The notes below the pieces were generated by a model, which was given only the letters and a program-made list of their open reading frames with translations, had not been told where the DNA came from and made no database searches. Made by a program: the position numbers and the translations under genes. Source: Thermodesulfobacteriota bacterium (GTDB lineage Bacteria; Desulfobacterota_D; UBA1144; Nemesobacterales; CSP1-2). Taken from it: a stretch of DNA of 64,000 bases. The stretch lies in assembly GCA_035559815.1 (NCBI GenBank), contig DATMAT010000057.1:6359-70358 (forward strand). Reading direction: 5' to 3'. The stretch's first letter is position 1; each line of letters begins with the position of its first letter. Shown in pieces: positions 2,663-42,683 of this stretch.

Positions 2663-4660
2663 TTAATCCTGATTCCGAAACACACCTGTGACCCCGGCGA
2701 TTTTTTCCGGCTCGCCCAGTAGAATTAATATGTCGTTGGCAGCCAGTTGGGTATCTCCACCAGGATTAGGCAAGATGTTCGAGTCCCGGCGAATCGCCAA
2801 AAGGGTGACCCCGTATTTATTTCTAAGCTCGATCTGGGCCAGGGACTTTCCGATTATAGGGGACTTGTCGCTCACCTGAAGCGTGCAAACCTCGACATTG
2901 GGAAAGTGAAAGGTTAAGTCAAACAAGGACGGGGATGACCTGGAAGGACTCCTGAACATTTCGTACCCGTCGGACCTCACCTCGGCGATGAACTTTTCGA
3001 TATCGTCTCTGGGAACAAGGTATTTGGTCAGCACACGGGTAAAGATCTCCACCGAGGTCTCAAATTCCTCCGGAATAACCTCATCCGCGCCTAATTCGTA
3101 CAGGGGATTGACCTCCTGAATAAAGCGCGTCCTGGCAATAATATACACCTTCGGGTTTAGCCTTCGGGCGATGGAGGTCACTTGTCTGGTCGCTGCCGGG
3201 TCGGAGATCGCTATCACCACCACCCGGGCGTCCTTTATACCGGCATGCTCGAGCACTGCCTCTTGAACTGCGTCTCCGTAATAGATGAGTTCTCCCTTCT
3301 CCTGTTCATCCCTGACCGTTTCCGGGTTCATCTCCAGAATTAAATAGGGTATACCCGCAGCTTTGGCCGCACGGGCCACATTCCTGCCATTAACCCCGAA
3401 ACCTATTATGATGAGATGATCTCTGAGGCGCTCCTGGCGGTCGGCAATATCTATCCCCCGGTAAGGGTATAAACCTGATTTTAATCTTTCCGGCAGTGGC
3501 AACCGTGACACAGAATCGGCGATGCGAGGGGCCAGAGCTATGATAAAAGGAGCAGCAGCCATGCTTAACACCGAAACGGAGAGAAAGGTTTGATAGACGC
3601 TACCATCAAGCAAATCGTTTTGAAGACCGGTTCTAGACAATATGAAGGAAAATTCTCCAACCTGGCTTAGGGTCAAACCCACCAGGATGGTGGTACGAAG
3701 CGGAAACCCGATCAAAGCGCTGGCAAACCCGGCGGTGATGGTTTTCAACATCAGCACGCCCAAGGCAATCATTGCTATCAAAAATGGGTGGCTGAAAAGA
3801 AAATCAAGGTCGAGGAGCATCCCGATGGAGATGAAAAAGAAGCTGAGGAATACGTCACGGAAAGGCAGGATGTTGCTTAGCGCCTGGTGGCTGTATTCAG
3901 ACTCGGAAATGATAAGCCCGGCCAGGAATGCCCCGAGGGCTAGAGAGAGGCCGATGCTGGATGTAAGCCAGGCCACCGCAAAGCACATGACCACTATACT
4001 CAACAAGAAAAGCTCCCGGCTCCTAGTTCGGGCAATCTGAAAGAGCAGGCGAGGTACCAGGTAATGGGCGCTTGCCACCACCAATGCGATTACCAGTACA
4101 CCTTTGACCAGAAGATAGAGGAGGGATTGTCCCACATTCTCTACCCCTCTGGAGAGAAGGGGAGTCAACAACATCATAGGAACAACTATCACATCCTGGA
4201 AGATCAAAATAGCCAGGGAAGTACGTCCTTGTGGACTATCAACCTCGGCTCTTTCCTGGAGTAGTTTTAGCACAATGGCCGTACTGCTGAGGGATATAAG
4301 AAATCCCAGAAAAACCGATTCCCCAAACGGTCGACCGAAGAGCTCAGCCACGACGAATACGACCAGTATGGTTATGAACACCTGAAGAGAACCACCTAAC
4401 AATACTGTTTTTCTGATGTGAAGAAGACTTTTCAGAGAAAACTCAATACCGATCGTGAATAGCAGTAGAACAACCCCTATCTCGGCCAGGGTTTCCACTT
4501 CGTGTGACTGCTTTATCAAGGCTAGGCCGTATGGCCCGGCTATCGTTCCGGTCAAGAGAAACCCGACTATGGTGGGCACACGCAGTCGGTGGCATATGAA
4601 GAGAACAAAAATGGAAAGTCCAAATATTATGACTATTTCGCTGAGTAAAGGTATCTGCAT
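2663..4660 (-). CDS. CPA2 cation:proton antiporter with TrkA-N/TrkA-C regulatory domains (Kef-like)
   Basis: 665 aa. About 12 TM helices, then a Rossmann segment IIIGFGVNGRNVA and a C-terminal TrkA-C-like domain. Confidence 0.85.
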   Translation of the reverse strand: MQIPLLSEIVIIFGLSIFVLFICHRLRVPTIVGFLLTGTIAGPYGLALIKQSHEVETLAEIGVVLLLFTIGIEFSLKSLLHIRKTVLLGGSLQVFITILVVFVVAELFGRPFGESVFLGFLISLSSTAIVLKLLQERAEVDSPQGRTSLAILIFQDVIVVPMMLLTPLLSRGVENVGQSLLYLLVKGVLVIALVVASAHYLVPRLLFQIARTRSRELFLLSIVVMCFAVAWLTSSIGLSLALGAFLAGLIISESEYSHQALSNILPFRDVFLSFFFISIGMLLDLDFLFSHPFLIAMIALGVLMLKTITAGFASALIGFPLRTTILVGLTLSQVGEFSFILSRTGLQNDLLDGSVYQTFLSVSVLSMAAAPFIIALAPRIADSVSRLPLPERLKSGLYPYRGIDIADRQERLRDHLIIIGFGVNGRNVARAAKAAGIPYLILEMNPETVRDEQEKGELIYYGDAVQEAVLEHAGIKDARVVVIAISDPAATRQVTSIARRLNPKVYIIARTRFIQEVNPLYELGADEVIPEEFETSVEIFTRVLTKYLVPRDDIEKFIAEVRSDGYEMFRSPSRSSPSLFDLTFHFPNVEVCTLQVSDKSPIIGKSLAQIELRNKYGVTLLAIRRDSNILPNPGGDTQLAANDILILLGEPEKIAGVTGVFRNQD

Positions 4661-5511: not shown

Positions 5512-5572
5512 AAAACAATAAGCCTAGCCCAAGTAAAACTCTTTTCTTGGCGTGTTAAAAGTAGTTAAGTGG

Positions 5573-5609
5573 GTAGGTAAAAGTACTCTACCGAAGTACT
5601 TTTACCTAC
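5573..5609. terminator. Perfect 15-bp-stem hairpin between convergent genes (candidate bidirectional terminator)
   Basis: GTAGGTAAAAGTACT-ctaccga-AGTACTTTTACCTAC, lying between the CBS gene end and the lipoprotein gene end. Confidence 0.55.
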
Positions 5610-5674
5610 GGTAAACCTTTTATATTGTCGTCGGCAATCTTTAATGAATTTAAAAGCTTAAATCGGAAAAGTTT

Positions 5675-6115
5675 TCAATGGGCAGGGGCTTCTTCCGTTT
5701 CATGTTCCATCATCTCTTTCCCGTGCTCCATCATTTCCTCGCCTTCCTTCTTCATTTCTTCCGCTGCCTCCTCCATCTTTTCACCGGCTTCTTCCATCGC
5801 TTTACCGGTTTCCTCGGCTGCATCCTTTCCCATCTCGGCGGCATCTTCCATCGCTTCGCCGGCTTTCTCTGCAGCTTCCTCTGCCATTTCCGCCGCATCT
5901 TCAGCCGCACCTACTGCCGCCTTTCCAGCATCTTCCACCATCTCACCGGCTTTTTCTCCAGCTTCTTCCATTGCTTCGCCGGCTTTTTCCGCGCCTTCCT
6001 TCACCGCCTCACCCGCTTCTTCAGTCGGTTTCTCCGCCCTCTCCGGACAGGCGCTCAAACCCACTACAAAAACACCTACCGACAGCACGATAAAAAGCTT
6101 CTTGAAGATTGACAT
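5675..6115 (-). CDS. Acidic Ala/Glu/Met-rich repeat lipoprotein
   Basis: AGGAGGAGG Shine-Dalgarno 7 nt upstream of the ATG. Signal peptide with lipobox VVGLSAC. The mature part consists of repeats such as AGEAMEEAGEKAGEMVEDAGK and ends EEMMEHGKEMMEHETEEAPAH. Confidence 0.6.
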   Translation of the reverse strand: MSIFKKLFIVLSVGVFVVGLSACPERAEKPTEEAGEAVKEGAEKAGEAMEEAGEKAGEMVEDAGKAAVGAAEDAAEMAEEAAEKAGEAMEDAAEMGKDAAEETGKAMEEAGEKMEEAAEEMKKEGEEMMEHGKEMMEHETEEAPAH

Positions 6116-6389
6116 GTCCTACCTCCTCCTTTAAGTATTTTCGCTATTCAATATTGAAAAAAAGCACAAAGTCAGAGCATTATGCAATTTGTGCACTAAT
6201 ATACACCATACCATTCCATTTTGTAAAGGCTTTAACCAACGACATGACCGTCGTCTATTTGCTTCAGAAAATTCGATGTTTAATCAGTCCGGAAAGCCAG
6301 ATAAAATTACAAACTAAGAGTCTTCGTTTAAGTGAATAGGATATCCCGCAGTGCTACTTTAGAGCGAACAACTTTAGGAGGGTCAAGCA

Positions 6390-7169
6390 ATGAAATTAGA
6401 CGGAAAGGTAGCCGTTGTAACCGGGGCGGCAAGCGGCATCGGACTGGCCATAGCCGAGGGACTAGCTAAAGAGGGTGTAAATATAACCATAGCCGATTTG
6501 GACGGTGAAGGAGGGAAGAAGGCTGTAGAGAAAATTCAAAAACTGGGTAGAGACGGTCTTTTCGTCAAAACCGATGTCACCAAGCGCGAGGACTGTAAGA
6601 ATCTAATCGCCGAGACCATGAAGAAGTTTGGTCGAATCGATATTCTGGTCAACAATGCCGGGCTACAGCACGTATCCCCGATCATTGATTTTCCGGAAGA
6701 GAAATGGGACCTGCTCATTGGGGTTATGATTACCGGCCCTTTCCTCTGCACCAAATATGCACTTCCACACATGATAAAACAAAAATGGGGAAGGATAATA
6801 AACATATCTTCCATACACGGGATTATTGCCGCTAAATTCAAATCCGCTTACGTTTCGGCAAAGCACGGCGTGATCGGTCTTACCAAGGTAACCGCGTTAG
6901 AGATGCTAGAACATGGAATAACCGCAAACGCTATATGCCCCACATTCGTGCGTACTCCACTCGTAGATAAACAGATAGACGACCAAGCCAAGGCCCACGG
7001 CATACCCAGGGAAGAAGTGCTCGAAAAGGTAATCCTGGCCGAGGCCCCTATGAAAAGGATGCTCGAACCGGAAGAGGTGGCAGACCTGGTTGTTTATTTG
7101 TCCGGCGAGTCGGCCCGTAACATCACCGGGTCGGCAATAACCATAGATGAGGGATGGACGGCGCAGTAA
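6390..7169 (+). CDS. bdhA: 3-hydroxybutyrate dehydrogenase-like short-chain dehydrogenase
   Basis: 259 aa. TGAASGIGLAIA cofactor motif, NNAGLQHVSPIIDFP, catalytic YVSAKHG, and a C-terminal IDEGWTAQ typical of BdhA-type SDRs. Confidence 0.75.
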   Translation: MKLDGKVAVVTGAASGIGLAIAEGLAKEGVNITIADLDGEGGKKAVEKIQKLGRDGLFVKTDVTKREDCKNLIAETMKKFGRIDILVNNAGLQHVSPIIDFPEEKWDLLIGVMITGPFLCTKYALPHMIKQKWGRIINISSIHGIIAAKFKSAYVSAKHGVIGLTKVTALEMLEHGITANAICPTFVRTPLVDKQIDDQAKAHGIPREEVLEKVILAEAPMKRMLEPEEVADLVVYLSGESARNITGSAITIDEGWTAQ

Positions 7170-7206: not shown

Positions 7207-8127
7207 TCACCCGGCTCGTCGTTTTATAATGTTCTTACCAGAGACTCGGCGTGTAAATTCTTTGGCGACTTTGAGAAATGCTTGCAAAACAGGAGACTTA
7301 TTATCACGCTTCCAAGCTACATTTAATTCCATCTTTTTCATTGGCTGCCACAGCTCGCGATAAACCACTCCCTCTCTTTTCAAGTCTTTCATCGATTCGG
7401 GAACTAATGATATACCCAATCCCGTTGCAATAAGTCCAAGTATAGTTTGCATCTGGTTTGCTTCCTGTATTACGTTGGGAGTGAAATCGGCATTCTGGCA
7501 AAGTCCAATGATTTGATTGTAAAGACCACAACCTAGATGGCGAGGAAATAAGACAAAAGGCTCGCTTTTTAATGCTCGAAGAGGTATCTTCTGTTTTGCT
7601 GAAAGAGGGTGATTCTCCGGCAGTGCTACGATAATAAACTCCTCCAGTATGGGTTCAAAAGAAAGCTCTTCATCCCGTATGGGTGAAAGAAGAAAACCAA
7701 CTTGAATGTCCTTGTTATGGAGAGCCTCTATGAGTTGAGCGGTAGTCATTTCTTTTAATTGCAGATGAATATCAGGGAATCGCTCTCTGAAAATCTTTAG
7801 AATGTTAGGAATTACATCATATGTAGCAAAACCCTCAAAACCTACCGTAAGCTCACCAATTTCTCCACGGCTTGCACGCTGAGCGGTACGTATAGACTGT
7901 TCGACCCGCTCAAGTATCCTCCGCGCTTCATCGAGAAATGCTCGTCCCGCCTCAGTCAACTCAATTCTGCGTTTAGTCCTGCGGAGAAGTTCAACCCCTA
8001 ATTGTTTTTCCAGTTGGCGTATTTGCTGACTGAGTGGAGGTTGGGCAATATGGAGTCTTTTAGCAGCCTCACCAAAATGCAGTTCTTCAGCGACCGCGAC
8101 AAAGTATCGCAAATGTCTCAATTCCAT
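7207..8127 (-). CDS. LysR-family transcriptional regulator
   Basis: 306 aa. N-terminal MELRHLRYFVAVAEELHFGEAAKRLHIAQPPLSQQIRQLE helix-turn-helix plus a LysR substrate-binding domain. Confidence 0.9.
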   Translation of the reverse strand: MELRHLRYFVAVAEELHFGEAAKRLHIAQPPLSQQIRQLEKQLGVELLRRTKRRIELTEAGRAFLDEARRILERVEQSIRTAQRASRGEIGELTVGFEGFATYDVIPNILKIFRERFPDIHLQLKEMTTAQLIEALHNKDIQVGFLLSPIRDEELSFEPILEEFIIVALPENHPLSAKQKIPLRALKSEPFVLFPRHLGCGLYNQIIGLCQNADFTPNVIQEANQMQTILGLIATGLGISLVPESMKDLKREGVVYRELWQPMKKMELNVAWKRDNKSPVLQAFLKVAKEFTRRVSGKNIIKRRAG

Positions 8128-8301
8128 AGCCTCATTATATCATACTTTTAAAGTCTTAATTTATAACGAAAAATATATTGGACTAATATAAACCGCTTAT
8201 ATAAAATCTAAGCAGACTAAGGCTCTTAACAAATAATCCGAATAAGTATAGAAGTTTTCATTTGAGATTAAATAAAAACAATAGCAAGGGAGAGTAAAGA
8301 G

Positions 8302-8673
8302 ATGACTGATGAAGAAAGAAAATCCATAGCTTCGGAGTATCTAAAGAGGCTTGATAGAGGTGAAGATTTCTTCGAGCTTTTTGACGAAAATGCCGAGGTA
8401 TTCTTTCCCAGGTCGGGCGTCGCGGTAGGGGCTGATGCATACAAGAAGCTCTTCTCCGATTTAGCGGCGAAGGTGAAAAGGTTCAGGCATCATCATGCCT
8501 ATTTAAACTGGATAATTCAGGGCGACATGGTCGTGGCTGAAGGATCGAGCGAGGGAGAATTAAAGACCGGAGAAAAATGGACTGACAGCAAATGGTGCGA
8601 TGTATTTGAGATTAGGAACGGCAAGATTCAACGTCTCTACATATACCTGGACCCGGAGTACTCCAGATATTAA
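8302..8673 (+). CDS. SnoaL/NTF2-like small protein
   Basis: 123 aa. Size and pattern (KWCDVFEIRNGKIQRLYIYLD) are typical of the NTF2-like fold. Divergent from the LysR gene. Confidence 0.45.
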   Translation: MTDEERKSIASEYLKRLDRGEDFFELFDENAEVFFPRSGVAVGADAYKKLFSDLAAKVKRFRHHHAYLNWIIQGDMVVAEGSSEGELKTGEKWTDSKWCDVFEIRNGKIQRLYIYLDPEYSRY

Positions 8674-8817
8674 TGAAGTGCATATTGCAAAAACAGAGCA
8701 CAAAGCTGTGCCTGTATACAAAAGCTGATTCCCCATAGAAGTATCCAAGCAAGATCAAAGACGACGAAGGATAAAATAAGTTGCTAAAAAAATATCTAGC
8801 ATAAGGAGGAAAGTATT

Positions 8818-33179: not shown

Positions 33180-33536
33180 TTATTGGCAAAACTTATCTAC
33201 CGTACAAATATCATAGGTATCACAGAAAGGCCCCCATGAAAACGGCCAGCAATCCGTCACCGGGGAACATTTCTTTGCACACCTACCGCTGCTACACTGA
33301 TTATTACTCTCGCACCGGCTCCCTCTGGGGAGATTACTACCGGAGGGTGGTGGGGGTTGGTCAGCACCTCCGTTCCCCACAGGCCTACTAAAAAGCCACT
33401 GAAGGAGTTGGTCCAAAAATTGCGGACTAACCACATCTCCCGGCAATAGTGAACGTGAGGATCTCTGTTGGTAGTAACCTCTTGTTTTATATAGCGATAC
33501 CTCCGCTGTAAACCCTGGAAGTGTAGATATTCTCAT
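33180..33536 (-). CDS. Leader-bearing Cys-rich protein P9 (118 aa)
   Basis: AAGGAGG Shine-Dalgarno. N-terminus MRISTLPGFTAEVSLYKTRGYY. C-terminal 8-Cys region CESNNQCSSGRCAKKCSPVTDCWPFSWGPFCDTYDICTVDKFC. Confidence 0.7.
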   Translation of the reverse strand: MRISTLPGFTAEVSLYKTRGYYQQRSSRSLLPGDVVSPQFLDQLLQWLFSRPVGNGGADQPPPPSGSNLPRGSRCESNNQCSSGRCAKKCSPVTDCWPFSWGPFCDTYDICTVDKFCQ

Positions 33537-33620
33537 CTTGGTTGCCTCCTTTTAGCCTAGATTTAACTTCGGCCGTCCTAATAATGCCATATTAGCAGCT
33601 AAGATTGCAAATTGATGACC

Positions 33621-34094
33621 CTAAACAAAACAGATGCCCCCATATCCGGGTAGCGTCACAGTGGAACAGGACGCACCGACAAAGGGAATCGGAACACAAA
33701 TTCTATTTCTGCAGAGGCAGGGAGTAGTAGAGAAAAATGTCATAATTGCAGTTCCGGCGATCTGTCCCGATACGCTCGATGTGCGTGCTATAGCGCCCGG
33801 CATATATGCAATCAAGTTACGATCACATTGGCAATCAAGATATCCGCGGCGACCGTAGCAGAGGTCATGTTCCCTACATACTGCATCGACTGCGTCTATG
33901 GGCGGTGTATTTCCGGTTGGATCACCGAATCCGGGCCCGCAGTAATTGCCGTAAACCGGGACGCTGAGTTGTTGCGGCAATACCGGATCTTGTTTGGAGC
34001 GTAGGTTTATCTTTACGCCTTTATTGTCAATGCCGTAACGCTTTATTTGCCTGCCTAAGCTGGCCTCCGCTTTAAATCCTGGCACCTTGTTCAT
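33621..34094 (-). CDS. Leader-bearing protein P8 with a phospholipase-A2-like domain (157 aa)
   Basis: AAAGGAG Shine-Dalgarno. N-terminus MNKVPGFKAEASLGRQ. YCGPGFGD, then about 17 aa, then CREHDLCY, which is the secreted-PLA2 Ca-loop and His-Asp motif arrangement. Confidence 0.7.
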   Translation of the reverse strand: MNKVPGFKAEASLGRQIKRYGIDNKGVKINLRSKQDPVLPQQLSVPVYGNYCGPGFGDPTGNTPPIDAVDAVCREHDLCYGRRGYLDCQCDRNLIAYMPGAIARTSSVSGQIAGTAIMTFFSTTPCLCRNRICVPIPFVGASCSTVTLPGYGGICFV

Positions 34095-34118
34095 TTCATT
34101 CAACTCCTTTTTTTGTAT

Positions 34119-34925
34119 TCACCGGTCGTAGTAAGGTGACATCTTTGTAACCAAGAACGGAAACTCCGACCACAAAAGCGCAATGGCACCTGTTACAAAT
34201 GGGGCTGCAGCACTAGTTTCTCCAAATGTGAGCGACTTGCCATTAGCCCCGAGGCTGGTAATGTTGTCGCCGGGAGCGCTTAGACCTCGCTTTCCGATAG
34301 AACTTCCTAGGTTCGAGTAGTTAATCGGTCTACCTTGAAGGTCGCAGGCAACAACCGGAATAACCCACGTGTGACCGGTAACGGCAGAACTTCCGATAGT
34401 CCCCTGATTCCCAGCCGCCGCAACAACAATAACACCACCCCTTGCAGCATAATCTAGAGCCTTTTCTAATTCGCGCTCACCTTTAGATGATGGTTGTGCA
34501 AGTGCAGCGCTTAGGTTTATTACACGCGCACCTGCATCAATGGTCTCTATGATTGCCCCTGCAAGCTCCTCTGGGGTTGCGCTTGGCAGGGATTTAGCGG
34601 GCTCACCCCAGGTCTGTCTGTTTCCCGATGCCCTCTCTGAAAAAATGGGACGTACAAGCAGTGTGCAATCAGGACAGATTGCCGGAGCTAGAGAACCCCT
34701 CCTACCGCACAAGATGCCTGCCACAAACGTCCCATGCATACAGGCAGCACTGCTTGCTACGGTGTATGTCCCATCCAGTTTTCCAGGAACCTCGCGGATA
34801 TTTTCACCTGTAAGGCTGGGATGGTTAATTATGATGGGGCCATCTATTAACCCAACTGTAATTTCGGGTCTACCGCTTGTGAGTTCCATCAATGCTGTGA
34901 GCTTGACCACATCCAAAGGATTCAT
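34119..34925 (-). CDS. Subtilisin S8 peptidase, second copy, C-terminally truncated and fused to the tail of the PatG-DUF-like gene (possibly decaying)
   Basis: 268 aa, highly similar by eye to the peptidase at 41599-42495 up to LLWSEFP. It then ends FLVTKMSPYYDR, identical to the last 12 aa of the protein at 40062-41006. GLIDGP, HGTFVAG and AAAGNQG are kept, but the Ser motif reads GETSAAAP (Gly to Glu). No obvious Shine-Dalgarno. Confidence 0.65.
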   Translation of the reverse strand: MNPLDVVKLTALMELTSGRPEITVGLIDGPIIINHPSLTGENIREVPGKLDGTYTVASSAACMHGTFVAGILCGRRGSLAPAICPDCTLLVRPIFSERASGNRQTWGEPAKSLPSATPEELAGAIIETIDAGARVINLSAALAQPSSKGERELEKALDYAARGGVIVVAAAGNQGTIGSSAVTGHTWVIPVVACDLQGRPINYSNLGSSIGKRGLSAPGDNITSLGANGKSLTFGETSAAAPFVTGAIALLWSEFPFLVTKMSPYYDR

Positions 34926-35001
34926 AGTTTCATCTATGAATCCTTGTTTAACCGAAAATTCCCATTTTAAATAAACTTGTTTATATCTAAGCCTTTCCTA
35001 G

Positions 35002-35283
35002 TGCCATTGTCTTACAAAGAATAGGTTATTGTCAAGGAAAATTTTTTCTCCCTACTTTACTTCTGAGGAAGATGAAAATTACGTAGATACTGTAAAATTT
35101 TTGAGAATGTAGAAAGAGGTGAGTTAAAAGCTATAACAAGCAAAGTCCCCGACTTCACTCAGATAGCTGTAGGAGTTTTGAGGAAGGTGAGAACTTTTCT
35201 TACAAACGATCTGGATTTCAAGGAAATAGAGAGCATAAGAGTTATACAATTAAGTAACTTTAAAACGGTCAAGCAACCTTAAA
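35002..35283 (+). pseudogene. Degraded PIN-domain (VapC-like) remnant
   Basis: Open frame without a start codon reads ...ERGELKAITSKVPDFTQIAVGVLRKVRTFLTNDLDF. The PIN-like ending KEIESIRVIQL is only reached after a 1-nt shift in an A-run near 35220. The N-terminal catalytic region is absent. Confidence 0.3.
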
Positions 35284-35512
35284 TGTCTTTCCGATAAGAA
35301 CGAGTCCTTCTAACTCTTCTCTCTCAAGCTTTCTTCTAATCTCGTCAAATTTCCTTACAGTATCGGGTGCGTAGAATCTCTTACCACATTTTAGACATAC
35401 CTCAAGCCATAACCCTAAGAACTGCCGTGTTAGTTCCACCTCATAGGAGCTTATCAACTTCCTTTTCGACGATTTCCCCTCCACACACAGGACATTTATC
35501 AAATAGCTTCAT
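35269..35512 (-). pseudogene. YgiT-type zinc-finger (MqsA-like antitoxin) gene with an internal frameshift
   Basis: ATG at 35512 overlaps the upstream stop as ATGA and encodes MKLFDKCPVCGGEIVEKEVDKLL, then stops at 35441-35443. The second zinc knuckle (EVCLKCGKRFYAPDTVRKFDEI) continues in another frame, which is the listed ORF 35269-35502. Confidence 0.5.
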
Positions 35513-35847
35513 CCCTTTGTTAAAACCTCAATAATATTTTTCATATTCTCAAATACTTCTTCTACCGATGGCTCTTCACACGGCACATGCTTTCCTGCCT
35601 CCCCAAAGGGATGATAGTGCCATCCCTTCAGATTATCAATTCCATAAATCCTCTCGTTCTTATGTATCAGTGCAAAATCTTTCCTTTCAGTCTCACAGTT
35701 AGCATAAATGTCTATCAGTAAATCTTGTTGAAAAGTAATTCGAACATATAGGTGAGTATTTCGAACTATATTGTATTGAAGCGTAACTAGAGGGAAGAAT
35801 TTCTTAGAGGCGTTATTTATCTCTTCTAAGAAGCGATTTAAATCCAA
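35509..35847 (-). CDS. DUF6516/TumE-like putative toxin
   Basis: 112 aa. RIYGIDNLKGWHYHPFGEAGKH resembles the DN..H.HP...H core I associate with TumE-family proteins. Translationally coupled to the zinc-finger gene. Confidence 0.4.
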   Translation of the reverse strand: MDLNRFLEEINNASKKFFPLVTLQYNIVRNTHLYVRITFQQDLLIDIYANCETERKDFALIHKNERIYGIDNLKGWHYHPFGEAGKHVPCEEPSVEEVFENMKNIIEVLTKG

Positions 35848-35859
35848 AAAGGCACCTTT

Positions 35860-36189
35860 CTACTCTAGGTTTTTAAGTAGTTCAAGCCATTTTTTCTTCT
35901 CAGCCTCTAATCCTTCCCAGACCATGTAATGCCTCTCTACCCGATGAGAGTACTTGTTCTCTATTTCTCCTCTCTCCCAGGCATCTGCAAATTCATTAAA
36001 GGTGCTCCCATATTTTACCTCAAACTTGTAAATTTCCTCTTCACATTCCCGGAGACGCCTAGCCAGATCAGACTTTATCAATTTGAGTATTTTTTCTCCC
36101 GGTGTATCTCCTTCAACATAATCGAAAAATTCGAGTATCTCTTTAGATAGGTCTAACGTAGGCATCTTATTTTCCTTATTTTGACTCAA
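35860..36189 (-). CDS. Hypothetical small helical protein in the TA islet
   Basis: 109 aa, 12 nt upstream of the TumE-like gene. No recognisable domain. Confidence 0.35.
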   Translation of the reverse strand: MSQNKENKMPTLDLSKEILEFFDYVEGDTPGEKILKLIKSDLARRLRECEEEIYKFEVKYGSTFNEFADAWERGEIENKYSHRVERHYMVWEGLEAEKKKWLELLKNLE

Positions 36190-36245
36190 TTAACTACACA
36201 GATTCTACCTTCCTATAATGACAAATGTCAAAAAACTAACTCCAT

Positions 36246-36539
36246 CTAGTGTTCTTCTCGTTCTGCGACAAAGTCCGCCTGTGGTGAGCAAAGTCGAACC
36301 ACTGTCAGCGAGCCAGGAATCTTCGAGAGAGCTTTCCTCACCGCCTCGAGGCTTATGCTCTCATCCACCTCGGCGGCATAGAGTTGCAAGCATTCGACAA
36401 CTAGCCATTCCTCCTCCGAAGGGATTGCTGGCAACTTAGACACGATTAAGGTGACGCGCTCGTGCTCACGGAGGTCAAGCGGTTCCAGCAGACGTAATAC
36501 ACCATTCTCATAAACCGCTTCAAGCCTTTTACTCATCAC
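36246..36539 (-). CDS. DUF104 (AF2212-like) antitoxin-family protein
   Basis: 97 aa. N-terminal LEAVYENGVLRLLEPLDLREHERVTLIV is the typical DUF104 motif. Confidence 0.5.
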   Translation of the reverse strand: MMSKRLEAVYENGVLRLLEPLDLREHERVTLIVSKLPAIPSEEEWLVVECLQLYAAEVDESISLEAVRKALSKIPGSLTVVRLCSPQADFVAEREEH

Positions 36540-36681
36540 GTACCTCTTTTACCCAAGACTTGTCCTGGCGTCTACTTCTTTTATCCCTCTAAGCCGTGCC
36601 CTAAGGCGACATCTTGGCGACTAGGAATAAGAACTTCTCAGCTAGATCTTAAATAACCACCTCTTCTCTCTGCAGTTGATC

Positions 36682-36930
36682 TCAGAAACAGATCCAACGG
36701 CAGTATCCACCCCAATGAGGCAGGCACACCCGGACGCATGAGGGCTCCACAATAGGCCACCGAAGCAAGTCTGGCCTAAAGAACTGTGTATCTGTGAAGA
36801 GCAATTGCGCTGGATATATGGTTACGTTAGCTTGGTTCAGAAGAGTGATCATCTGGTAATGTTCACTTGTCTTATAGAGTGATACTTCTGCGGTGAATCC
36901 CGGCATCTTCATCTGGTTCATTTTATTCAT
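36682..36930 (-). CDS. Leader-bearing Cys-rich peptide P7 (~82 aa; start uncertain, 36930 or 36921)
   Basis: N-terminus MNKMNQMKMPGFTAEVSLYKTSEHYQ. Putative core after IYPAQ is LLFTDTQFFRPDLLRWPIVEPSCVRVCLPHWGGYCRWICF (4 Cys). Confidence 0.7.
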   Translation of the reverse strand: MNKMNQMKMPGFTAEVSLYKTSEHYQMITLLNQANVTIYPAQLLFTDTQFFRPDLLRWPIVEPSCVRVCLPHWGGYCRWICF

Positions 36931-37029
36931 CCCCACTTCAACAAAATTTTTTGACCTCACTTCCGCTAGGAGATATGTCGTTGCACTTAGTAAATCGTTT
37001 TTCACCCTCCTTAATCAGAGAGCGAAGAG

Positions 37030-37995
37030 TCAGACCGGGATACAACGCCCCGAATCGAAGAGGCAAGTCCAACCAGGTGGACAGCCACTGTTGCCACAAC
37101 ACGACCAACCCGGCGGAGCACACTTTGTGCCATTAGCACAGCAGGAGTGACCAGGCGGGCAGCAACCCCGCCCGCAACACACAGGAGCCCACGACGGACA
37201 GCAATGGTCGCCACAACACCGCTCACCAGATACGCAGCAGCGGTTGCCACAAGTCTGACCCGCCGGGCAACAACCACCGCCGGTGCATACTTCTCCTGGC
37301 CCACAGCAGTGATTGTTACAGACTCGACTAGGTGGACAGCAGCCCTCGATGGTGCACTGCTCTCCCGGAGCACAGCGACGGTTATTGCAGACTCGATCTG
37401 CAGGAGCACAGCCGTCCAGGGTGCACACTTCTTCCGGCGCACAACAACGCTCGTTGCAGACTCGATCTTTAGGGCAGAAGCCGTCCCTAGTGCACTGCTG
37501 CCCATCTGGCACATAACAACCGAAACCGAAGCAGCATCGTTGACCTGGCGGACAGCAGCTTAATGTATATCCGGTTGCCGTTTCATTAAGGATGTGGCAG
37601 CATTCATGGTCTCCCGGGCAACATTCCGGACGCTTTCCGATGCGCCCGCACAACTTCATTTCAGGTGGACAGAGAGGAGGAATGAACTCGCATTGGACCA
37701 AGCACTGTACTCTGCATTCATCACGCAGAATCGCGATTGGAACATCCGGATTATCAATGCGTCCAGCTTTGACGCAGGCACCTACGCAGCGATCAACACA
37801 GGGTTTTTTATGGCAATATTCCATGCACTGATGGTCAGGGTGGCCAGCCCTGAGGCAATCGTCCATACAACGATTCACACCGTTGTATGCCGGGTATATA
37901 GTCTCATTCACTTGGCTAGAAGTCCCAATAGTATAGTAGTGCCCGCTCGTTTTATAGAGTGACCCTTCTGCGGTAAATCCTGGTATCTTGTTCAT
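37030..37995 (-). CDS. Leader-bearing giant Cys-rich repeat protein P6 (321 aa)
   Basis: N-terminus MNKIPGFTAEGSLYKTSGHYY. About 58 Cys by my count, with CCPPG..CC motifs. Three tandem 23-aa units RVCN..CCAPEEVCT.DGCAPAD are also visible as repeated TTGCAGACTCGATCT at nucleotide level. Confidence 0.75.
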   Translation of the reverse strand: MNKIPGFTAEGSLYKTSGHYYTIGTSSQVNETIYPAYNGVNRCMDDCLRAGHPDHQCMEYCHKKPCVDRCVGACVKAGRIDNPDVPIAILRDECRVQCLVQCEFIPPLCPPEMKLCGRIGKRPECCPGDHECCHILNETATGYTLSCCPPGQRCCFGFGCYVPDGQQCTRDGFCPKDRVCNERCCAPEEVCTLDGCAPADRVCNNRRCAPGEQCTIEGCCPPSRVCNNHCCGPGEVCTGGGCCPAGQTCGNRCCVSGERCCGDHCCPSWAPVCCGRGCCPPGHSCCANGTKCAPPGWSCCGNSGCPPGWTCLFDSGRCIPV

Positions 37996-38064
37996 TTAAT
38001 TCGCCCCTAATTTCAATCATAATATGTCGTGCCTAATCACGGCCTTCACCCGGGTGCATAAGGT

Positions 38065-38388
38065 CTAAGTTCGAGTAGGGCTGCATCCTTTGAGGCATTC
38101 TCGATAATTCTCATCGCAGATAATACAGTGGGTAGATCCCTTCGGGTTTTCAGGCGTGCCTTCACAACCCTCCAAACACAGGACCCAGGCTATATAGCAA
38201 AGACCTCTACAAAGCGAACGCCCGATCCCGCCAAAAAGCCCAGAACCGGGCGATACAGGTAATGGATTAATAGTCAGTTGAGAAATAACTCTTTGCCCAC
38301 AGTTGCTATAAGCTTGCATCGCTATAGACTGGTACTGCTCACTCGTCTTATAAACCGATGCCTCTGCTGTGAATCCCGGTGTTTTCAT
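38065..38388 (-). CDS. Leader-bearing Cys-rich protein P5 (107 aa)
   Basis: N-terminus MKTPGFTAEASVYKTSEQYQ. C-terminal region LCRGLCYIAWVLCLEGCEG...HCIICDENYRECLKGC. Confidence 0.7.
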   Translation of the reverse strand: MKTPGFTAEASVYKTSEQYQSIAMQAYSNCGQRVISQLTINPLPVSPGSGLFGGIGRSLCRGLCYIAWVLCLEGCEGTPENPKGSTHCIICDENYRECLKGCSPTRT

Positions 38389-38441
38389 TTCATCAACCCC
38401 CATTTATTTCAGATTATCCCTACAGCAGCCGACCTAAACCC

Positions 38442-38693
38442 TTAGGCCATTCCCCCGCCACCACAGACCCCAAAGCACGCACCGCACGTCAAAAAATCTC
38501 CTGGGTCTGGCACAGGCGACATAACAAGGAAAGCCGCACAGGCTAGGCAAGCGGTCATGCAAAACCTGCTTCTGAACATCGCCGGAACGATCCCACTTTC
38601 TTTCATATCCGAACTATAAGAAACCGTATATCGTCCAGTAGACCTGTATACAGAGGTTTCTGCAGTAAATCCAGGCAAATTCATTTTACTCAT
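38442..38693 (-). CDS. Leader-bearing Cys-rich peptide P4 (83 aa)
   Basis: GGAGGTG Shine-Dalgarno. N-terminus MSKMNLPGFTAETSVYRSTGRY. Hydrophobic Cys/Gly-rich core FCMTACLACAAFLVMSPVPDPGDFLTCGACFGVCGGGGMA. Confidence 0.7.
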   Translation of the reverse strand: MSKMNLPGFTAETSVYRSTGRYTVSYSSDMKESGIVPAMFRSRFCMTACLACAAFLVMSPVPDPGDFLTCGACFGVCGGGGMA

Positions 38694-38748
38694 TTTATTC
38701 ACCTCCTTCACACATTGTTCAAAACCGAGATGAGTGCAGTAATCGGTC

Positions 38749-39126
38749 TTACCAGCCGAACCCGACACCTAGCTCGGTGTCGCAGGTCGTATCTGGCACG
38801 TCCCATTCACCCCAAATATTAAACCAAGTGTTTTTACACCGGTCTGGAGGCCGACCTTCAAGACCCGGAGTCGTTCGACAAGCTTCTTCCCACGATACGC
38901 CCCAAGGGATACCCCACAATATGGCTGAAAACTGTCGCCGTCCGCAGCCTGACCCTTCCGTCCACCAACAGCCGCGCTTAGTACAGTGATCTCTCTTGAA
39001 GCTACCCCAGGTCTGGGCCGGCACAAGGCGTCCCATTTCCGTCGGCATGTACTGAAAACCCGCTCGATACTGATGGCTCCCGCGATATAGCGAAGCCTTT
39101 GCGGTAAATCCAGGTATTTTGTTCAT
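38749..39126 (-). CDS. Leader-bearing Trp/Cys-rich protein P3 (125 aa)
   Basis: GGAGGTG Shine-Dalgarno. N-terminus MNKIPGFTAKASLYRGSHQY. The core has 6 Cys and many Trp (GCWWTEGSGC...ILWGIPWGVSWEEAC...NTWFNIWGEWD). Confidence 0.7.
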   Translation of the reverse strand: MNKIPGFTAKASLYRGSHQYRAGFQYMPTEMGRLVPAQTWGSFKRDHCTKRGCWWTEGSGCGRRQFSAILWGIPWGVSWEEACRTTPGLEGRPPDRCKNTWFNIWGEWDVPDTTCDTELGVGFGW

Positions 39127-39177
39127 TTCATTCACCTCCTTTTTTCACTCCCTCACCAGACCCTAGAGACCGAACAC

Positions 39178-39588
39178 TCAGATCAGGGTGCAGAAAGAAG
39201 GACTACATCCTATGAAGGGTGCACATATTCTCCTGCACTTTGTCCCCGCCGGACAACAGCCCTCGTTATTACAGCAGGACGTACCGGGCGGGCAACAACC
39301 ACGAGCACAGCAAGGATGACCAGGGGGACAAGAGTGGGTGCCGCAGTTGGGTCGAGGTGGAGGAGGTGGGGGTGGAGTACAAGATACTTCTTTACAAATA
39401 GGTCCTCCTGTTTCTGGGTCATATCCAAAGCAACAGGTCTTCTGCCCATTTTCACATGGCGTGCACCCTTTAATCTGTTGTAGTACTAAGCCGCTAACTG
39501 ACTTGCTAGTCCAAGTCGATTCAAGCGCATAAATCCCAGCCGTCCTGTAGAGCGAAGCCTCTGCGGCAAATCCCGGCATTTTGCTCAT
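39178..39588 (-). CDS. Leader-bearing Cys/Pro-rich protein P2 (136 aa)
   Basis: GGAGGTG Shine-Dalgarno. N-terminus MSKMPGFAAEASLYRTAGIY. The core has a poly-Pro tract PPPPPPPRP and CCPPGTSCCNNEGCCPAGTKC repeats similar to P6. Confidence 0.7.
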   Translation of the reverse strand: MSKMPGFAAEASLYRTAGIYALESTWTSKSVSGLVLQQIKGCTPCENGQKTCCFGYDPETGGPICKEVSCTPPPPPPPRPNCGTHSCPPGHPCCARGCCPPGTSCCNNEGCCPAGTKCRRICAPFIGCSPSFCTLI

Positions 39589-39657
39589 TTGACTCACCTC
39601 CTTTCTCTTTTTCCTCCGTCCGTATAGAATTCACCTGATAAACCGCCGCGGTCTCAA

Positions 39658-40026
39658 CTAGTCAATCGCTACCAAGCTGTCAACACAGTCACGCCACGGC
39701 TCACTTGCCGGCACCCAACCCCAATAGCAGCCAGGCGGTTCAGGACAGATCTTTGCATACTTAAACCATTGGCATATCCGGCACTCGGTTTGAAAAGTCA
39801 GACCCCAAAATTTCCATGTGCTGGTCGTTTTATCCCAGCACAATTTTTTCATCGTAAACACTACGCCCGGCATTGATGTTGGCACGTCAACGGTAGATAG
39901 TGTGCCCATCAGTCCCTGGGTAAGAACCAACGCACCTACTCTCACGCCTGCACGATTCGGGGCTACTGCATAGCTCATGGCTGATTTGTAGAGCGAGACC
40001 TCTGCTGTAAACTCAGGCAATTTCAT
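39658..40026 (-). CDS. Leader-bearing Trp/Cys-rich protein P1 (122 aa)
   Basis: GGAGGTGA Shine-Dalgarno. N-terminus MKLPEFTAEVSLYKSAMSY. Core LCWDKTTSTWKFWGLTFQTECRICQWFKYAKICPEPPGCYWGWVP...DC. Confidence 0.7.
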   Translation of the reverse strand: MKLPEFTAEVSLYKSAMSYAVAPNRAGVRVGALVLTQGLMGTLSTVDVPTSMPGVVFTMKKLCWDKTTSTWKFWGLTFQTECRICQWFKYAKICPEPPGCYWGWVPASEPWRDCVDSLVAID

Positions 40027-40061
40027 TTCCTTCACCTCCATTCAATTGAATCCGGTCGACC

Positions 40062-41006
40062 TCACCGATCATAATACGGCGACATCTTTGTAACCAGGAA
40101 CGGAAACTCCTCGGTCACATCCACACGGGTAAAGAACTTCTCGGTAACGTCCGTCTGACGATTGGTGAAGGAGAAAATGACATCTACAACCTTGCGTGTG
40201 CCGCTGAGAGGCGAATGACGAACTTCTACCGCTGTCAAAGAAGAGTTTTGAGCAAAAGCCTCCGCAGCTTTAGCATAGATGGCGTTGTATCGTACTGCCA
40301 GATAGTTTAAAGCACGGTGGTCGTCAGTGGCTCCGGCATTGTCAGCTATCTGCATTATCCTCATGAATAGCTCCTCTGCTGCTGGGGTGAACTCCTTTGC
40401 TGACATCTTTTCCGGCTTAGGAATAGATTTGATTAGAGAATCGATATCGAATGAATACATCTGGTCGAACACAACAATAGGCACCATGAGTCCATTGCAC
40501 ATCTCTGGCGGGGCGATTGGCCCTCTCATGCCAATAACCACATCAACATCAGTGGGGCGTGGAGCGGGACGTAAGGCCTCCACTAACATATCCAGGTCCG
40601 CAGGGTCGCGCGGCACCAGAATGTATGTCTCCAAACCCTCAATGGTTAAAACCCAGCACATCTGTCTCACCAGGTAGCGGTTCTGTCTATGGGTCAGAAC
40701 CTTGTGGAGTGCCTCTCGGTCGGTAAGCCCGGCTGTCTTTTCCCGCCCTGTAACTTGGGCGAATTCCTTCTCCACAGCTAAACGAGGAAAGCGGGCCTCG
40801 ACCCTGCCCAGGGCATAAACGAAGCTGGGTGTAACTCCGCCATTTGACCCGGTGGAGCTTCCGCATGTAGGACACCCTCCCCCTCCAGCTTGGGTGGGAA
40901 GAATAGTTCCAGTACGACTTTCAGAAGAGGATACTACTGTTGGTGAGTCTTTCACGTTAACGGCTTGCTCTCCCATCTGTTCCTTCGATTCAACATTTTC
41001 TTCCAT
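40062..41006 (-). CDS. Protein resembling the C-terminal DUF of cyanobactin proteases PatA/PatG (PatG_C/PatG_D-like)
   Basis: 314 aa from the ATG preceded by AAGGAGGAG. FVYALGRVEARFPRLAVEKEF, CWVLTIEGLETYILVP, LMVPIVVFDQMYSF, DHRALNYLAVRYNAIY and FTRVDVTEEFPFLV follow the motif order I recall for the PatG DUF (VYALG..GYDFG.EARRD.F ... DRALNF ... DVS..PV). Recalled from memory, not verified. Confidence 0.5.
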   Translation of the reverse strand: MEENVESKEQMGEQAVNVKDSPTVVSSSESRTGTILPTQAGGGGCPTCGSSTGSNGGVTPSFVYALGRVEARFPRLAVEKEFAQVTGREKTAGLTDREALHKVLTHRQNRYLVRQMCWVLTIEGLETYILVPRDPADLDMLVEALRPAPRPTDVDVVIGMRGPIAPPEMCNGLMVPIVVFDQMYSFDIDSLIKSIPKPEKMSAKEFTPAAEELFMRIMQIADNAGATDDHRALNYLAVRYNAIYAKAAEAFAQNSSLTAVEVRHSPLSGTRKVVDVIFSFTNRQTDVTEKFFTRVDVTEEFPFLVTKMSPYYDR

Positions 41007-41199
41007 GATATTTCTCCTCCTTTCAGGATAGATTTCAAAGGCTTCATAATTAGCCACAAAGACTCAAAGGAAATTGTTAACGAGTTAGCTTACGCCTTTT
41101 GTCGTGTTAGCGAGTTTGCGTGTTATTTTTCTAGCTCGTAAACCAGCAAACACGTTAACCCGCAAACATTGTTTCTTTGTGCCTTGGTGGTTTATATTT

Positions 41200-41418
41200 T
41201 TATCTCGAACGCCTGCCAGAGAAAACCAGCCAACCGTTGAGTGTGGAGGCGCGACGTTCACATCCGCCACACGGTTTAATCCCAATAGTAGACGTGACTC
41301 GCTTAATCGCATCACCCAGTCCAATTTCCTCATCGCTAATGAAACCAGGAAGACGAACCCGGTAAGGCTGTCCTTTAGTCTTACTTCTTTGACCATTTCT
41401 TGTTTCTTCCTTTTTCAT
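41200..41418 (-). CDS. Small basic protein with an LPGF motif and a C-x-x-C pair (72 aa)
   Basis: AGGTGA Shine-Dalgarno. MKKEETRNGQRSKTKGQPYRVRLPGFISDEEIGLGDAIKRVTSTIGIKPCGGCERRASTLNGW. Lies between the S8 and DUF genes. Confidence 0.4.
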   Translation of the reverse strand: MKKEETRNGQRSKTKGQPYRVRLPGFISDEEIGLGDAIKRVTSTIGIKPCGGCERRASTLNGWLVFSGRRSR

Positions 41419-41450
41419 GACATTCACCTATGTTACGCAAATATACATTA

Positions 41451-41477
41451 TAGGGGGACGCTGCAGCGTGCCCCTAC
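41451..41477. repeat. GTAG...CTAC-type palindrome copy (TAGGGGGACGCTGCAGCGTGCCCCTAC)
   Basis: Read directly. Imperfect relative of the palindromes at 22129 and 53393. Confidence 0.6.
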
Positions 41478-41496
41478 CTAAGTTGAACGCACAACT

Positions 41497-41569
41497 GTCA
41501 TTCCCGCACGCTTATGGATACCCCACAGCTCCCCGATAACTACATTCGGGGACAGGATTCGGGTATGAC
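41497..41569. repeat. MITE-like element (GTCATTCCCGC...ATGGATACCCC...ACATTCGGGGAC...GGGTATGAC)
   Basis: Same family as 15686-15802 and 45647-45716. Inserted between the S8 gene and the small ORF. Confidence 0.6.
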
Positions 41570-41598
41570 AATGTAAAAAAGCGAATAACGTGAGATAT

Positions 41599-42495
41599 TC
41601 ACCTCCTTAAACCAGACCTTATAATCTGATACGCCCCCCATGCATCAAGCAAGGGTGGAACTACCGTATTTCTCCTTCGCCCGTTCGACCGTGTAATCAC
41701 GACTTTCATATCAGCACCGGTAGCTTTTGGGAACTCTGACCAAAGCAGCGCAATAGCCCCCGTCACAAAGGGAGCCGCAGCGCTCGTTCCGCTGAACGTG
41801 AGTGGTTTGCCATCGGCTCCGAGGCTAGTAATGTTGTCGCCGGGGGCGCTCAGACCTCGTCTCCCTATCGAATTTCCCAGATTGGAGTAACTAATCGGTC
41901 TACCCTGAAGGTCACAGGCAACGACCGGGATAACCCAAGGGTGACGGGTGATAACAGTGCTACCAACTGCTCCCTGATTTCCCGCCGCTGCTACAATCAA
42001 AACGCCTCTCTTTGATGCATAATTCAAAGCCCCTACTAACTCTCGTTCACCTGTGGAAGATAGCTGCGCCATAGCTGCACTCAGGTTTATCACGTGCGCT
42101 CCCGCATCAATGGTCTCGATTAATGCCGCTGCTAGTTCATCGGGAGTGGTACTGGGCATGGGCTCTAGATGCTGGCTGCGGCTATTTCCATTTCCTGACA
42201 TCGTCTCAGCAAAAATAGGACGCACCAACAACGTGCAATCAGGACAGATAGCCGGAGCTACAGAACCCCTCTTTCCGCACAAAATTCCTGCCACGAATGT
42301 TCCATGCAAACAGGCGACACTACTTGCCTGTGCACATGCACCCGCAAGTTTTCCAGGGACCTCACGAATGTCTCCACCTGAAAGATCCGGATGGTCTAAT
42401 AACACGGGCCCGTCAATCAGACCAACTACTATCTCTGGCCTCCCGCTGGCAATATCCATCAAAGCGGTGAGCCTGATTAAATCCAGATGATTCAT
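41599..42495 (-). CDS. Subtilisin-family S8 peptidase without a signal peptide (PatA-like)
   Basis: 298 aa from ATG 42495 (GAGGTGAGG Shine-Dalgarno). Catalytic contexts VGLIDGPVLLDHP (Asp), CLHGTFVAG (His), AAAGNQG (Asn) and FSGTSAAAPFVTG (Ser). No hydrophobic N-terminus. Confidence 0.8.
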   Translation of the reverse strand: MNHLDLIRLTALMDIASGRPEIVVGLIDGPVLLDHPDLSGGDIREVPGKLAGACAQASSVACLHGTFVAGILCGKRGSVAPAICPDCTLLVRPIFAETMSGNGNSRSQHLEPMPSTTPDELAAALIETIDAGAHVINLSAAMAQLSSTGERELVGALNYASKRGVLIVAAAGNQGAVGSTVITRHPWVIPVVACDLQGRPISYSNLGNSIGRRGLSAPGDNITSLGADGKPLTFSGTSAAAPFVTGAIALLWSEFPKATGADMKVVITRSNGRRRNTVVPPLLDAWGAYQIIRSGLRR

Positions 42496-42683
42496 GCGTG
42501 GATTCCTCACCTCAACCCAGTGATAGGAGTTAAAAACTAGATAAAGACTAAAGGAGAACGAGTACTTACAGTTAATCTTTCAAGTGAGCAGAAATAAACA
42601 ACCGGCGGTTATCGTTAATAACCTGATGTTGTGGACAGAAGTTGCTTAGGCTCTTTATAGTTATTGCTCTCCCTCTCAGGGTG

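Follow-up and report, generated by a model that had tools for sequence, protein, structure and literature searches.

The DNA analysed here is a stretch of 64,000 nucleotides (the window, to which all positions refer) from contig DATMAT010000057.1 (positions 6,359 to 70,358) of assembly GCA_035559815.1, a metagenome-assembled genome (MAG) of a Thermodesulfobacteriota bacterium. Two genes of the S8 (subtilisin-like) protease family are present on its minus strand. Copy 1 is intact and stands at the head of a gene module (module 1), in which it is followed by a small open reading frame (ORF), a gene for a protein with the PatG_D and PatG_C domains (referred to as DUF, domain of unknown function) and an array of precursor genes. 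Copy 2 is a chimera, and its two halves meet at an E-F-P microhomology that is found in both parent gene families. The features of copy 2 and of the three module 1 genes are as follows.

34119–34925, minus strand: copy 2, chimeric ORF of 268 amino acids, truncated S8 protease with a DUF tail (translation, Pfam)
34159–34925, minus strand: S8-derived part of copy 2, codons 1–255/256 (blastn against copy 1 and about 85 S8 genes)
34158–34166, minus strand: junction GAG TTT CCG (E-F-P), microhomology of 8–10 nucleotides common to the S8 and DUF families
34119–34157, minus strand: DUF-derived tail of copy 2, FLVTKMSPYYDR plus TGA, the last 12 DUF codons and the stop
41599–42495 (longer start 42510), minus strand: copy 1, intact PatA-like S8 protease of module 1 (PF00082)
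41200–41427, minus strand: small ORF of 75 amino acids between S8 and DUF
40062–41006 (longer start 41057), minus strand: DUF, PatG_D and PatG_C protein (PF18047, E 1e-32; PF18065, E 5e-35)

The chimeric gene and its junction

The translation of copy 2 ends in ...TGAIALLWSEFPFLVTKMSPYYDR*. Copy 1 reads ...TGAIALLWSEFPKATGADMKVV... at the point where copy 2 switches to the DUF tail, and the C-terminus of the DUF protein is ...VDVTEEFPFLVTKMSPYYDR*. The Pfam profile PF00082 matches residues 21–257 of copy 2 (E 1e-25), and the match extends no further than profile position 259 of 288. PF18065 (PatG_C, about 115 residues) gave no match in copy 2, which holds only the last 12–15 residues of that domain. 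According to the blastn analysis, the S8 part (34925–34159) corresponds to 42495–41729 with an identity of 73.2% over 770 nucleotides (E 8e-129), and the tail (34167–34119) corresponds to 40110–40062 with an identity of 87.8% over 49 nucleotides (E 1e-12). The two matches adjoin, and their overlap is the 9 nucleotides of the junction, G-GAG-TTT-CC. The E-F-P codons are located at 34166–34158 in copy 2 (GAG TTT CCG), at 41736–41728 in copy 1 (GAG TTC CCA) and at 40109–40101 in the DUF gene (GAG TTT CCG). The octamer GAG TTY CC is present at 41736–41729 in the S8 gene and at 40109–40102 in the DUF gene, and once, at 34166–34159, at the junction of the chimera. The original prediction, made from the letters of the window, stated that copy 2 follows copy 1 up to E-F-P and then reads the C-terminus of the DUF protein, and that both parents encode E-F-P at the junction. 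Translations, blastn matches and codons agree with both statements, and in the nucleotide alignment the identity of the tail extends to a common breakpoint.

In alignments with about 85 S8 genes of other genomes, homology sets in at the start codon of copy 2 (34925–34928) and is lost at 34158–34161 in essentially every case, and the breakpoint is sharp. The sequence W-S-E-F-P is kept in 68 of the 82 S8 genes, and E-F-P is kept in 50 of the 55 PatG-type (DUF) genes, mostly as GAG/GAA TTY CC. As the two motifs share one codon phase, any recombination from one to the other keeps the frame. The spacing from the S8 to the DUF E-F-P is 1627 nucleotides in module 1 and typically 1.0–1.8 kb elsewhere (median about 1.33 kb). 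A mini-ORF of three codons (ATG AAA CTA TGA) with AAGGA 7 nucleotides upstream is located at 34926–34945 on the minus strand; its stop and the start codon of copy 2 overlap as ATGA, perhaps by chance.

As the source is a MAG, an artefact of assembly or amplification, either a repeat collapse or a chimeric join between strains, was considered for the junction. A Logan contig of run SRR7882662, which was assembled separately, matches window positions 41655–24119 with one mismatch in 17,537 nucleotides (99.994%) and spans the junction, where it agrees with the NCBI contig of the MAG. No exact match longer than 17 nucleotides connects the copy 2 region with module 1; near the junction, where the microhomology is just 8–10 nucleotides, the longest is 16 nucleotides. 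A length of 17 nucleotides is below the k-mers usual in metagenome assemblers. The flanks of the junction differ from module 1 by 27% and 12%; thus, the chimera is not made of module 1 pieces. A collapse between repeats, the objection raised in the original prediction itself, was rejected as very unlikely given the 17-nucleotide match and the second assembly with the same junction, and an artefact of either kind seems to us highly improbable.

Copy 2 forms a singleton protein cluster, from this Thermodesulfobacteriota MAG. The DUF tail is found on none of its 119 best homologues. Neither the back-translated junction W-x-E-F-P-F-L-V-T-K-M nor a looser form of this motif occurs in the JGI metagenome contigs or in 185,579 GTDB species genomes. 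A protein query of 53 residues spanning the junction returned 19 short candidates and did not recover copy 2 itself, and this search is uninformative on other chimeras. The event is rare, although every module carries the predisposing microhomology.

Divergence of the second module and of the fused tail

Copy 2 had been regarded as part of a duplicated module. However, the amino acid identity between copy 1 and copy 2 is 73%, and closer relatives of each are found elsewhere. Copy 2 is nearest to P0018 and P0004 (82% amino acid identity), and copy 1 is nearest to P0030 and P0023 (84–87%), where P00xx are S8 homologue proteins of other metagenomes and L0xx, used below, are related loci. No relative of copy 2 closer than 82% was found in the databases searched. 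For the ratio of non-synonymous to synonymous substitution rates (dN/dS) between the two copies, the calculation proposed together with the duplication, the pairwise dS is about 1.6, which is near saturation; the dS between copy 1 and its L010 orthologue is 0.51. L010 is the closest sister locus, with a nucleotide identity of 87–92% to the window over the flanks and module 1. A second S8 gene is missing from L010, and window positions 37936–33616 are without a counterpart in this locus. Among 88 non-redundant loci, the window is the only one with two S8 copies within 10 kb of the S8 gene. As each copy has closer relatives elsewhere and L010 is without copy 2, copy 2 belongs to a second, long-diverged module, which this lineage probably acquired, and it is not a recent duplicate of copy 1.

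The tail differs from 40062–40110 at 6 of 49 nucleotides, and all six differences are synonymous (TTG/CTG, TCA/TCG, CCT/CCG, TAC/TAT twice and GAC/GAT), exactly as claimed at the outset. Synonymous sites make up 10 of 45 in the tail, and an all-synonymous outcome has a probability of about 1e-4 under neutral change. The DUF gene of the window (40062–41006) is a paralogue of the tail donor, not the donor itself. The tail has about eight differences from the DUF genes of L001 and L004, as counted by eye on codon displays. The PatG-type genes of the window, L001, L004 and L010 all encode the peptide VDVTEEFPFLVTKMSPYYDR without change, but with different codons. Detached or non-coding DUF fragments likewise differ at synonymous positions only (5 of 5 differences in L010 and 12 of 12 in L051). 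This is the pattern to be expected if the tail diverged inside a functional PatG-type gene and was then recently joined to S8. Because the divergence would have preceded the join, the synonymous-only pattern is no evidence of selection on the fused tail. A role of the DUF 3' end as a hidden sigma-70 promoter for the precursors was also considered and was dropped, as the scan found no site there. Promoter-like matches were not enriched (12, against 11.3 in shuffled sequence). In the tail of copy 2, a TATTAT/TATGAT-like stretch is changed to TACTACGAC.

Activity and history of copy 2

Asp28, His64, Asn173 and Ser238 are present in copy 2, and these residues align with invariant columns of the family (the subtilase order and the oxyanion Asn). 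The substitutions G236E, C54Y and R184G are observed. The residue before Thr-Ser is Gly in 119 of 119 homologues and Glu in copy 2 (G-E-T-S-A-A-A-P), and copy 2 departs from the motif G-T-S-x-A-x-P around the catalytic Ser; the contrast between GETS in copy 2 and SGTS in copy 1 had been noticed correctly. Position 54, beside a second conserved Cys, is Cys in 118 of the 119 homologues and Tyr in copy 2. A C-terminal segment of about 42 residues (...RRxTVVPPLLDAWxAYQ) follows W-S-E-F-P in 116 of them and is absent from copy 2. The three homologues without this segment end early and are possibly incomplete or disrupted.

Judging from an alignment with subtilisin BPN' and from the known subtilase fold, the cut lies just past the helix of the catalytic Ser, and the last helices of the domain are lost. 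Copy 2 does not comprise a complete catalytic domain including the helices after the Ser helix. AlphaFold2 models calculated with 30-sequence alignments showed a mean predicted local distance difference test score of 42 for copy 2 and 52 for copy 1; they were too poor and were not used. The helices predicted at 260–268 and 280–296 of copy 1 are the sole indication of the lost part from the models.

Given the lost C-terminal segment, G236E and C54Y, it is plausible that copy 2 is inactive. The original prediction had proposed 'inactive or re-purposed', and the first word is compatible with these changes, whereas we found no evidence for the second. It also pointed to the Shine-Dalgarno sequence. 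Copy 2 is indeed without a clear one, but the intact orthologue of L004 is likewise without one, and this sign of inactivity was dropped as weak.

A deletion or illegitimate recombination at the 8–10-nucleotide E-F-P microhomology is the best explanation for the chimera. At the start, a second PatA-like module (S8, small ORF, PatG_D/PatG_C gene and precursors) would have been located at the far end of the precursor array. One illegitimate recombination would then have joined the GAG-TTY-CC of W-S-E-F-P in S8 to the same octamer of T-E-E-F-P in the DUF gene, and the likeliest mechanism would be replication slippage or microhomology-mediated deletion of about 1.3–1.7 kb. The 3' end of S8, the small ORF and most of the DUF gene would have been lost, and the product would have remained in frame, with the last 12 codons and the stop of the DUF gene itself. 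The intergenic spacer of the DUF gene, its Shine-Dalgarno sequence and the next precursor gene would have been left in place. The order S8, small ORF, DUF (PatG_D/C) and precursors is canonical in 80+ related loci, and because of this order a single in-frame deletion is the simplest route.

Microhomology-mediated deletions create in-frame fusions or pseudogenes in bacterial genomes. As in other bacterial short-homology deletions, one GAGTTYCC remains at the junction, the intervening genes are missing and the hybrid ORF is found in a single lineage. In contrast to them, the microhomology is encoded here by motifs conserved in both families, and one instance was found. Copy 2 is most likely an ordinary gene remnant from a short-homology deletion, and its genomic context is more interesting.

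We hold with good confidence that copy 2 was left over from a second PatA-like module after a deletion at E-F-P and is now a young, inactive relic. With regard to activity, an inactive and evolutionarily young relic is also what the conserved residues most likely indicate. The two precursors downstream of copy 2 would be processed in trans by the module 1 proteins (41599–42495 and 40062–41006).

Several observations weigh against this interpretation. The undeleted gene order is seen in paralogous and orthologous modules, and the intact parental module of copy 2 was not observed. Orphan DUF tails, described below, allow a larger deletion or a join to the head of an orphan cassette. The S8 part of copy 2 has no frameshift or stop, and 268 codons are open. 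The catalytic Asp, His, Asn and Ser are kept. The dN/dS of copy 2 to its relatives is 0.08–0.11, compared with 0.06–0.17 between intact genes, and its deviations at highly conserved columns (four) and its singleton residues (five) are high but within the range of the family. The case for inactivity is therefore based on the truncation and the two substitutions, and measured decay is not its basis. In the dN/dS analysis and the Tajima relative-rate tests, dS is near saturation, and the rate excess of copy 2 is matched by the intact copy 1. The open frame and the unrelaxed dN/dS are compatible with a recent event.

The open frame of 268 codons, the kept catalytic residues and the low dN/dS can also be taken as signs that the chimera is maintained and functional, either as an impaired subtilase that serves as a substrate-binding or regulatory partner or as a leader cistron for the phospholipase A2 (PLA2)-like precursor downstream. 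A promoter-like site is located 80 nucleotides upstream of copy 2 (35035–35006), and the precursor starts 24 nucleotides past the stop of copy 2 with a good AGGAG. CspC of Clostridioides difficile is a pseudoprotease, an impaired subtilase homologue kept for a non-proteolytic role. Copy 2 is similar to proteins of the CspC type in that an S8 fold carries a change beside the catalytic centre. However, those proteins keep the full fold and are conserved across species, whereas copy 2 keeps the triad and a partial fold and is a singleton, without an orthologue anywhere searched. In addition, the low dN/dS mostly reflects the history before the fusion (dS 0.9–1.6), copy 2 departs from its family at two invariant features, Gly236 and the lost C-terminal segment, and promoter-like matches are about as frequent in shuffled sequence (11.3) as here (12). 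A functional chimera is thus unlikely in our judgement.

The search by tblastn with the PatG-type C-terminus detected detached 3' fragments of DUF genes in 29 of the 88 loci, in many phyla; such scars are therefore common. These orphan ends are located directly upstream of a precursor gene, and the stop codon and a short spacer with AAGGAGG are retained. Most of them begin near residue 286–297 (...RVDVTEEFPFLVTK...), and their length is 10–30 codons, sometimes up to about 115. Most start at ...RVDVTEEFPFLV and hence contain the E-F-P site. Examples are 13619–13684 in L010; 5771–5821, 6403–6474 and 7391–7420 in L004; and 5534–5563 and 6142–6216 in L009. Further orphans are found in L023, L025, L041, L070 and other loci, and a degraded one is found in the window:

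36604–36648, minus strand: degraded orphan DUF 3' fragment, DLAEKFLFLVAKMSP* (tblastn E 0.01)

The orphans of L009, L079 and L071 carry in-frame stops, and these are therefore not coding. Compared with the resident full gene, the orphans show 170 synonymous and 172 non-synonymous differing codons. The synonymous share is far above that of neutral decay of a local copy, which suggests that the orphans derive from other functional DUF genes or modules and were imported. In the simplest reading, pieces of diverged modules, from the end of the PatG gene onward, would have been recombined recurrently into the arrays, and the tail of copy 2 would fit this pattern.

The S8 gene could also have been joined to a pre-existing orphan head (DUF 3' end, spacer and precursor). 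Such a join could be due to a larger deletion, with loss of precursor genes as well, or to recombination with DNA that entered the cell. The same chimera would result, with a history and a deleted length other than those of a simple deletion. The orphan fragments upstream of precursors in 29 of the 88 loci, most with E-F-P, the differing codons (170 and 172) that suggest an origin in other functional DUF genes and the degraded orphan at 36604–36648 are in favour of this route. On the other hand, the first DUF end downstream of S8 is that of a full DUF gene in almost every locus, and a simple deletion needs fewer steps; no sequence feature separates the two routes. We regard a join to an orphan head as possible and rather improbable, and prefer the simple deletion. 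The microhomology-mediated deletion of about 1.6 kb put forward in the original prediction is accordingly retained as the best explanation, with 1627 nucleotides as the corresponding distance in module 1, whereas its length is uncertain if the partner was an orphan tail.

Neighbouring genes, related loci and known systems

The further features between module 1 and the end of the array are listed here.

36682–40041, minus strand: array of seven precursor genes, M..PGFTAE.SLY leader and Cys-rich cores (translations)
35269–36539, minus strand: low-GC block (37.5% GC) with four small genes, between the array and copy 2
33621–34103, minus strand: precursor directly downstream of copy 2, leader MNKVPGFKAEASLG, phospholipase-A2-like core
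33180–33536, minus strand: last precursor of the array, 118 amino acids, also present in the sister locus L010

Judging from its genes, module 1 corresponds to a split PatA that consists of the protease, the 75-residue ORF, the PatG-type protein and the precursor array. PatA and PatG join a subtilisin-like protease with a domain of unknown function, and some cyanobactin clusters carry several precursor genes (PMC4663559). The protease domains of PatA and PagA are the closest solved relatives of both S8 genes (PDB entries 4H6W, 4H6V and 3ZXX; E 1e-29 to 1e-31 for copy 1), and the neighbour protein has PatG_D and PatG_C and matches the PatG DUF structure 4UVQ. The S8 and DUF genes together cover positions 1–179, matched by both S8 genes, and 276–597 of TIGR03895. 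The scores against this profile are 103.2 bits for copy 2, 113.5 bits for copy 1 and 38.4 bits for the DUF gene, and none reaches the cut-off of 421. As in cyanobactin clusters, several precursor genes follow. Unlike in PatA, protease and DUF are encoded by two genes, and a small ORF lies in between. Also unlike in cyanobactin clusters, genes for a macrocyclase, a heterocyclase and PatB/PatC are absent from the S8-to-precursor clusters examined, the cores are Cys-rich proteins of 60–350 residues instead of peptides of 6–20 residues, and the system is found in many bacterial and archaeal phyla beyond the cyanobacteria. The end of the precursor leader, AE(A/V/G)S, resembles the PatA site G(L/V)E(A/P)S; this likeness is a lead and not a test.

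An ORF of 65–84 residues is present at the position of the small ORF in every close relative examined (L001–L004 and L006–L010), and the region 41424–41208 matches L010 at 88%. The small ORF at 41200–41427 has no family match. Within it, the sequence LPGFISDEE is similar to the precursor leader PGFTAEAS and precedes GLGDAIKRVTSTIGIKPCGGCERR.

Nine precursor-like genes (33180–33536, 33621–34103 and those at 36682–40041, all on the minus strand) share the leader M..(M/I/V/L)PGFTAE(A/V/G)SLY(K/R)T. The cores, with a length of 60–320 residues, are not related to one another; most are rich in Cys, and no signal peptide is obvious. The 321-residue precursor at 37030–37995 (minus strand) has a long run of repeats of the CCxPGxxC / RCCxPGExC type; its counterpart in L010 has 355 residues, with nucleotide similarity at the 5' end only. 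The likely start of the precursor at 33621–34103 is the ATG at 34094, with AGGAG at 34104–34108. It matches PF08398 (Phospholip_A2_4) with 24.4 bits against a cut-off of 23.9, and PF00068 (Phospholip_A2_1) with E 3e-6, under the cut-off of that profile. Its motif YGNYCGPG ... CREHDLCY is similar to that of secreted phospholipase A2. Positions 33616–31203 match L010 17333–19756 at 87%.

The low-GC block is no part of the protease system, and it is absent from the sister locus L010. It is possibly an insertion of the toxin–antitoxin type. Its genes include an AF2212-like gene (36246–36539) and a zinc-finger-like gene with CxxC...CxxC (35269–35502), and L012 has a similar zinc-finger gene (3148–3399) after its S8 gene.

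In close relatives the flanks are the same as in the window, with genes for a radical S-adenosylmethionine protein and a luciferase-like oxidoreductase on one side and for an AMP-binding enzyme on the other. With >7,900 matches at E <1e-10, the S8 family is very large. A scan of species-representative genomes gave 80 further loci with 64–75% amino acid identity, and their hosts are Acidobacteriota, ammonia oxidisers, Nitrospira, cyanobacteria, Planctomycetota, Methanophagales, Methanoperedens, Methanosarcina and others. Over the window (33180–42510) and L012–L091, the S8 protein of the split PatA-like system shows 64–80% amino acid identity across distant bacteria and archaea, with Thermodesulfobacteriota, Nitrosospira, Nitrosomonas, Flavobacteriaceae and Hadarchaeum as further hosts. 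This high identity across many phyla implies extensive horizontal transfer. The searchable literature yielded no paper on the split PatA-like system, and no NCBIfam model of it was found.

Irregular modules are also observed. In L012 (5–148 and 730–1605), the end of a PatG gene and a precursor precede an S8 gene that has no PatG-type gene after it; therefore, adjacent modules do occur. L043 has two full PatG-type genes (5521–6465 and 7840–8790) and one S8 gene. In L051 (6577–8766), a PatG-gene fragment of 84 codons is located beside genes for a DNA methyltransferase and a Vsr-like endonuclease.

On its own, the chimera illustrates an in-frame short-homology deletion cleanly, and it is of importance chiefly for annotation. 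Copy 2 should not be listed among the active S8 peptidases, and no new domain is represented by its tail. In combination with the orphan ends of PatG genes that recur in other loci, the chimera marks the precursor arrays as mosaics of diverged modules, and it draws attention to a widely transferred, apparently undescribed split PatA-like system. We tentatively suggest, as an idea that is more doubtful than the deletion itself, that the arrays grow by a common route of which the chimera is one trace, that the extremely conserved PatG-type 3' end and the conserved precursor leader act as a recombination handle, a cassette head by which foreign precursors or modules are captured, and that redundant proteases then collapse at E-F-P. 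If this is true, a cassette system based on homologous recombination would diversify a widespread and apparently undescribed group of protease-processed Cys-rich proteins in bacteria and archaea.

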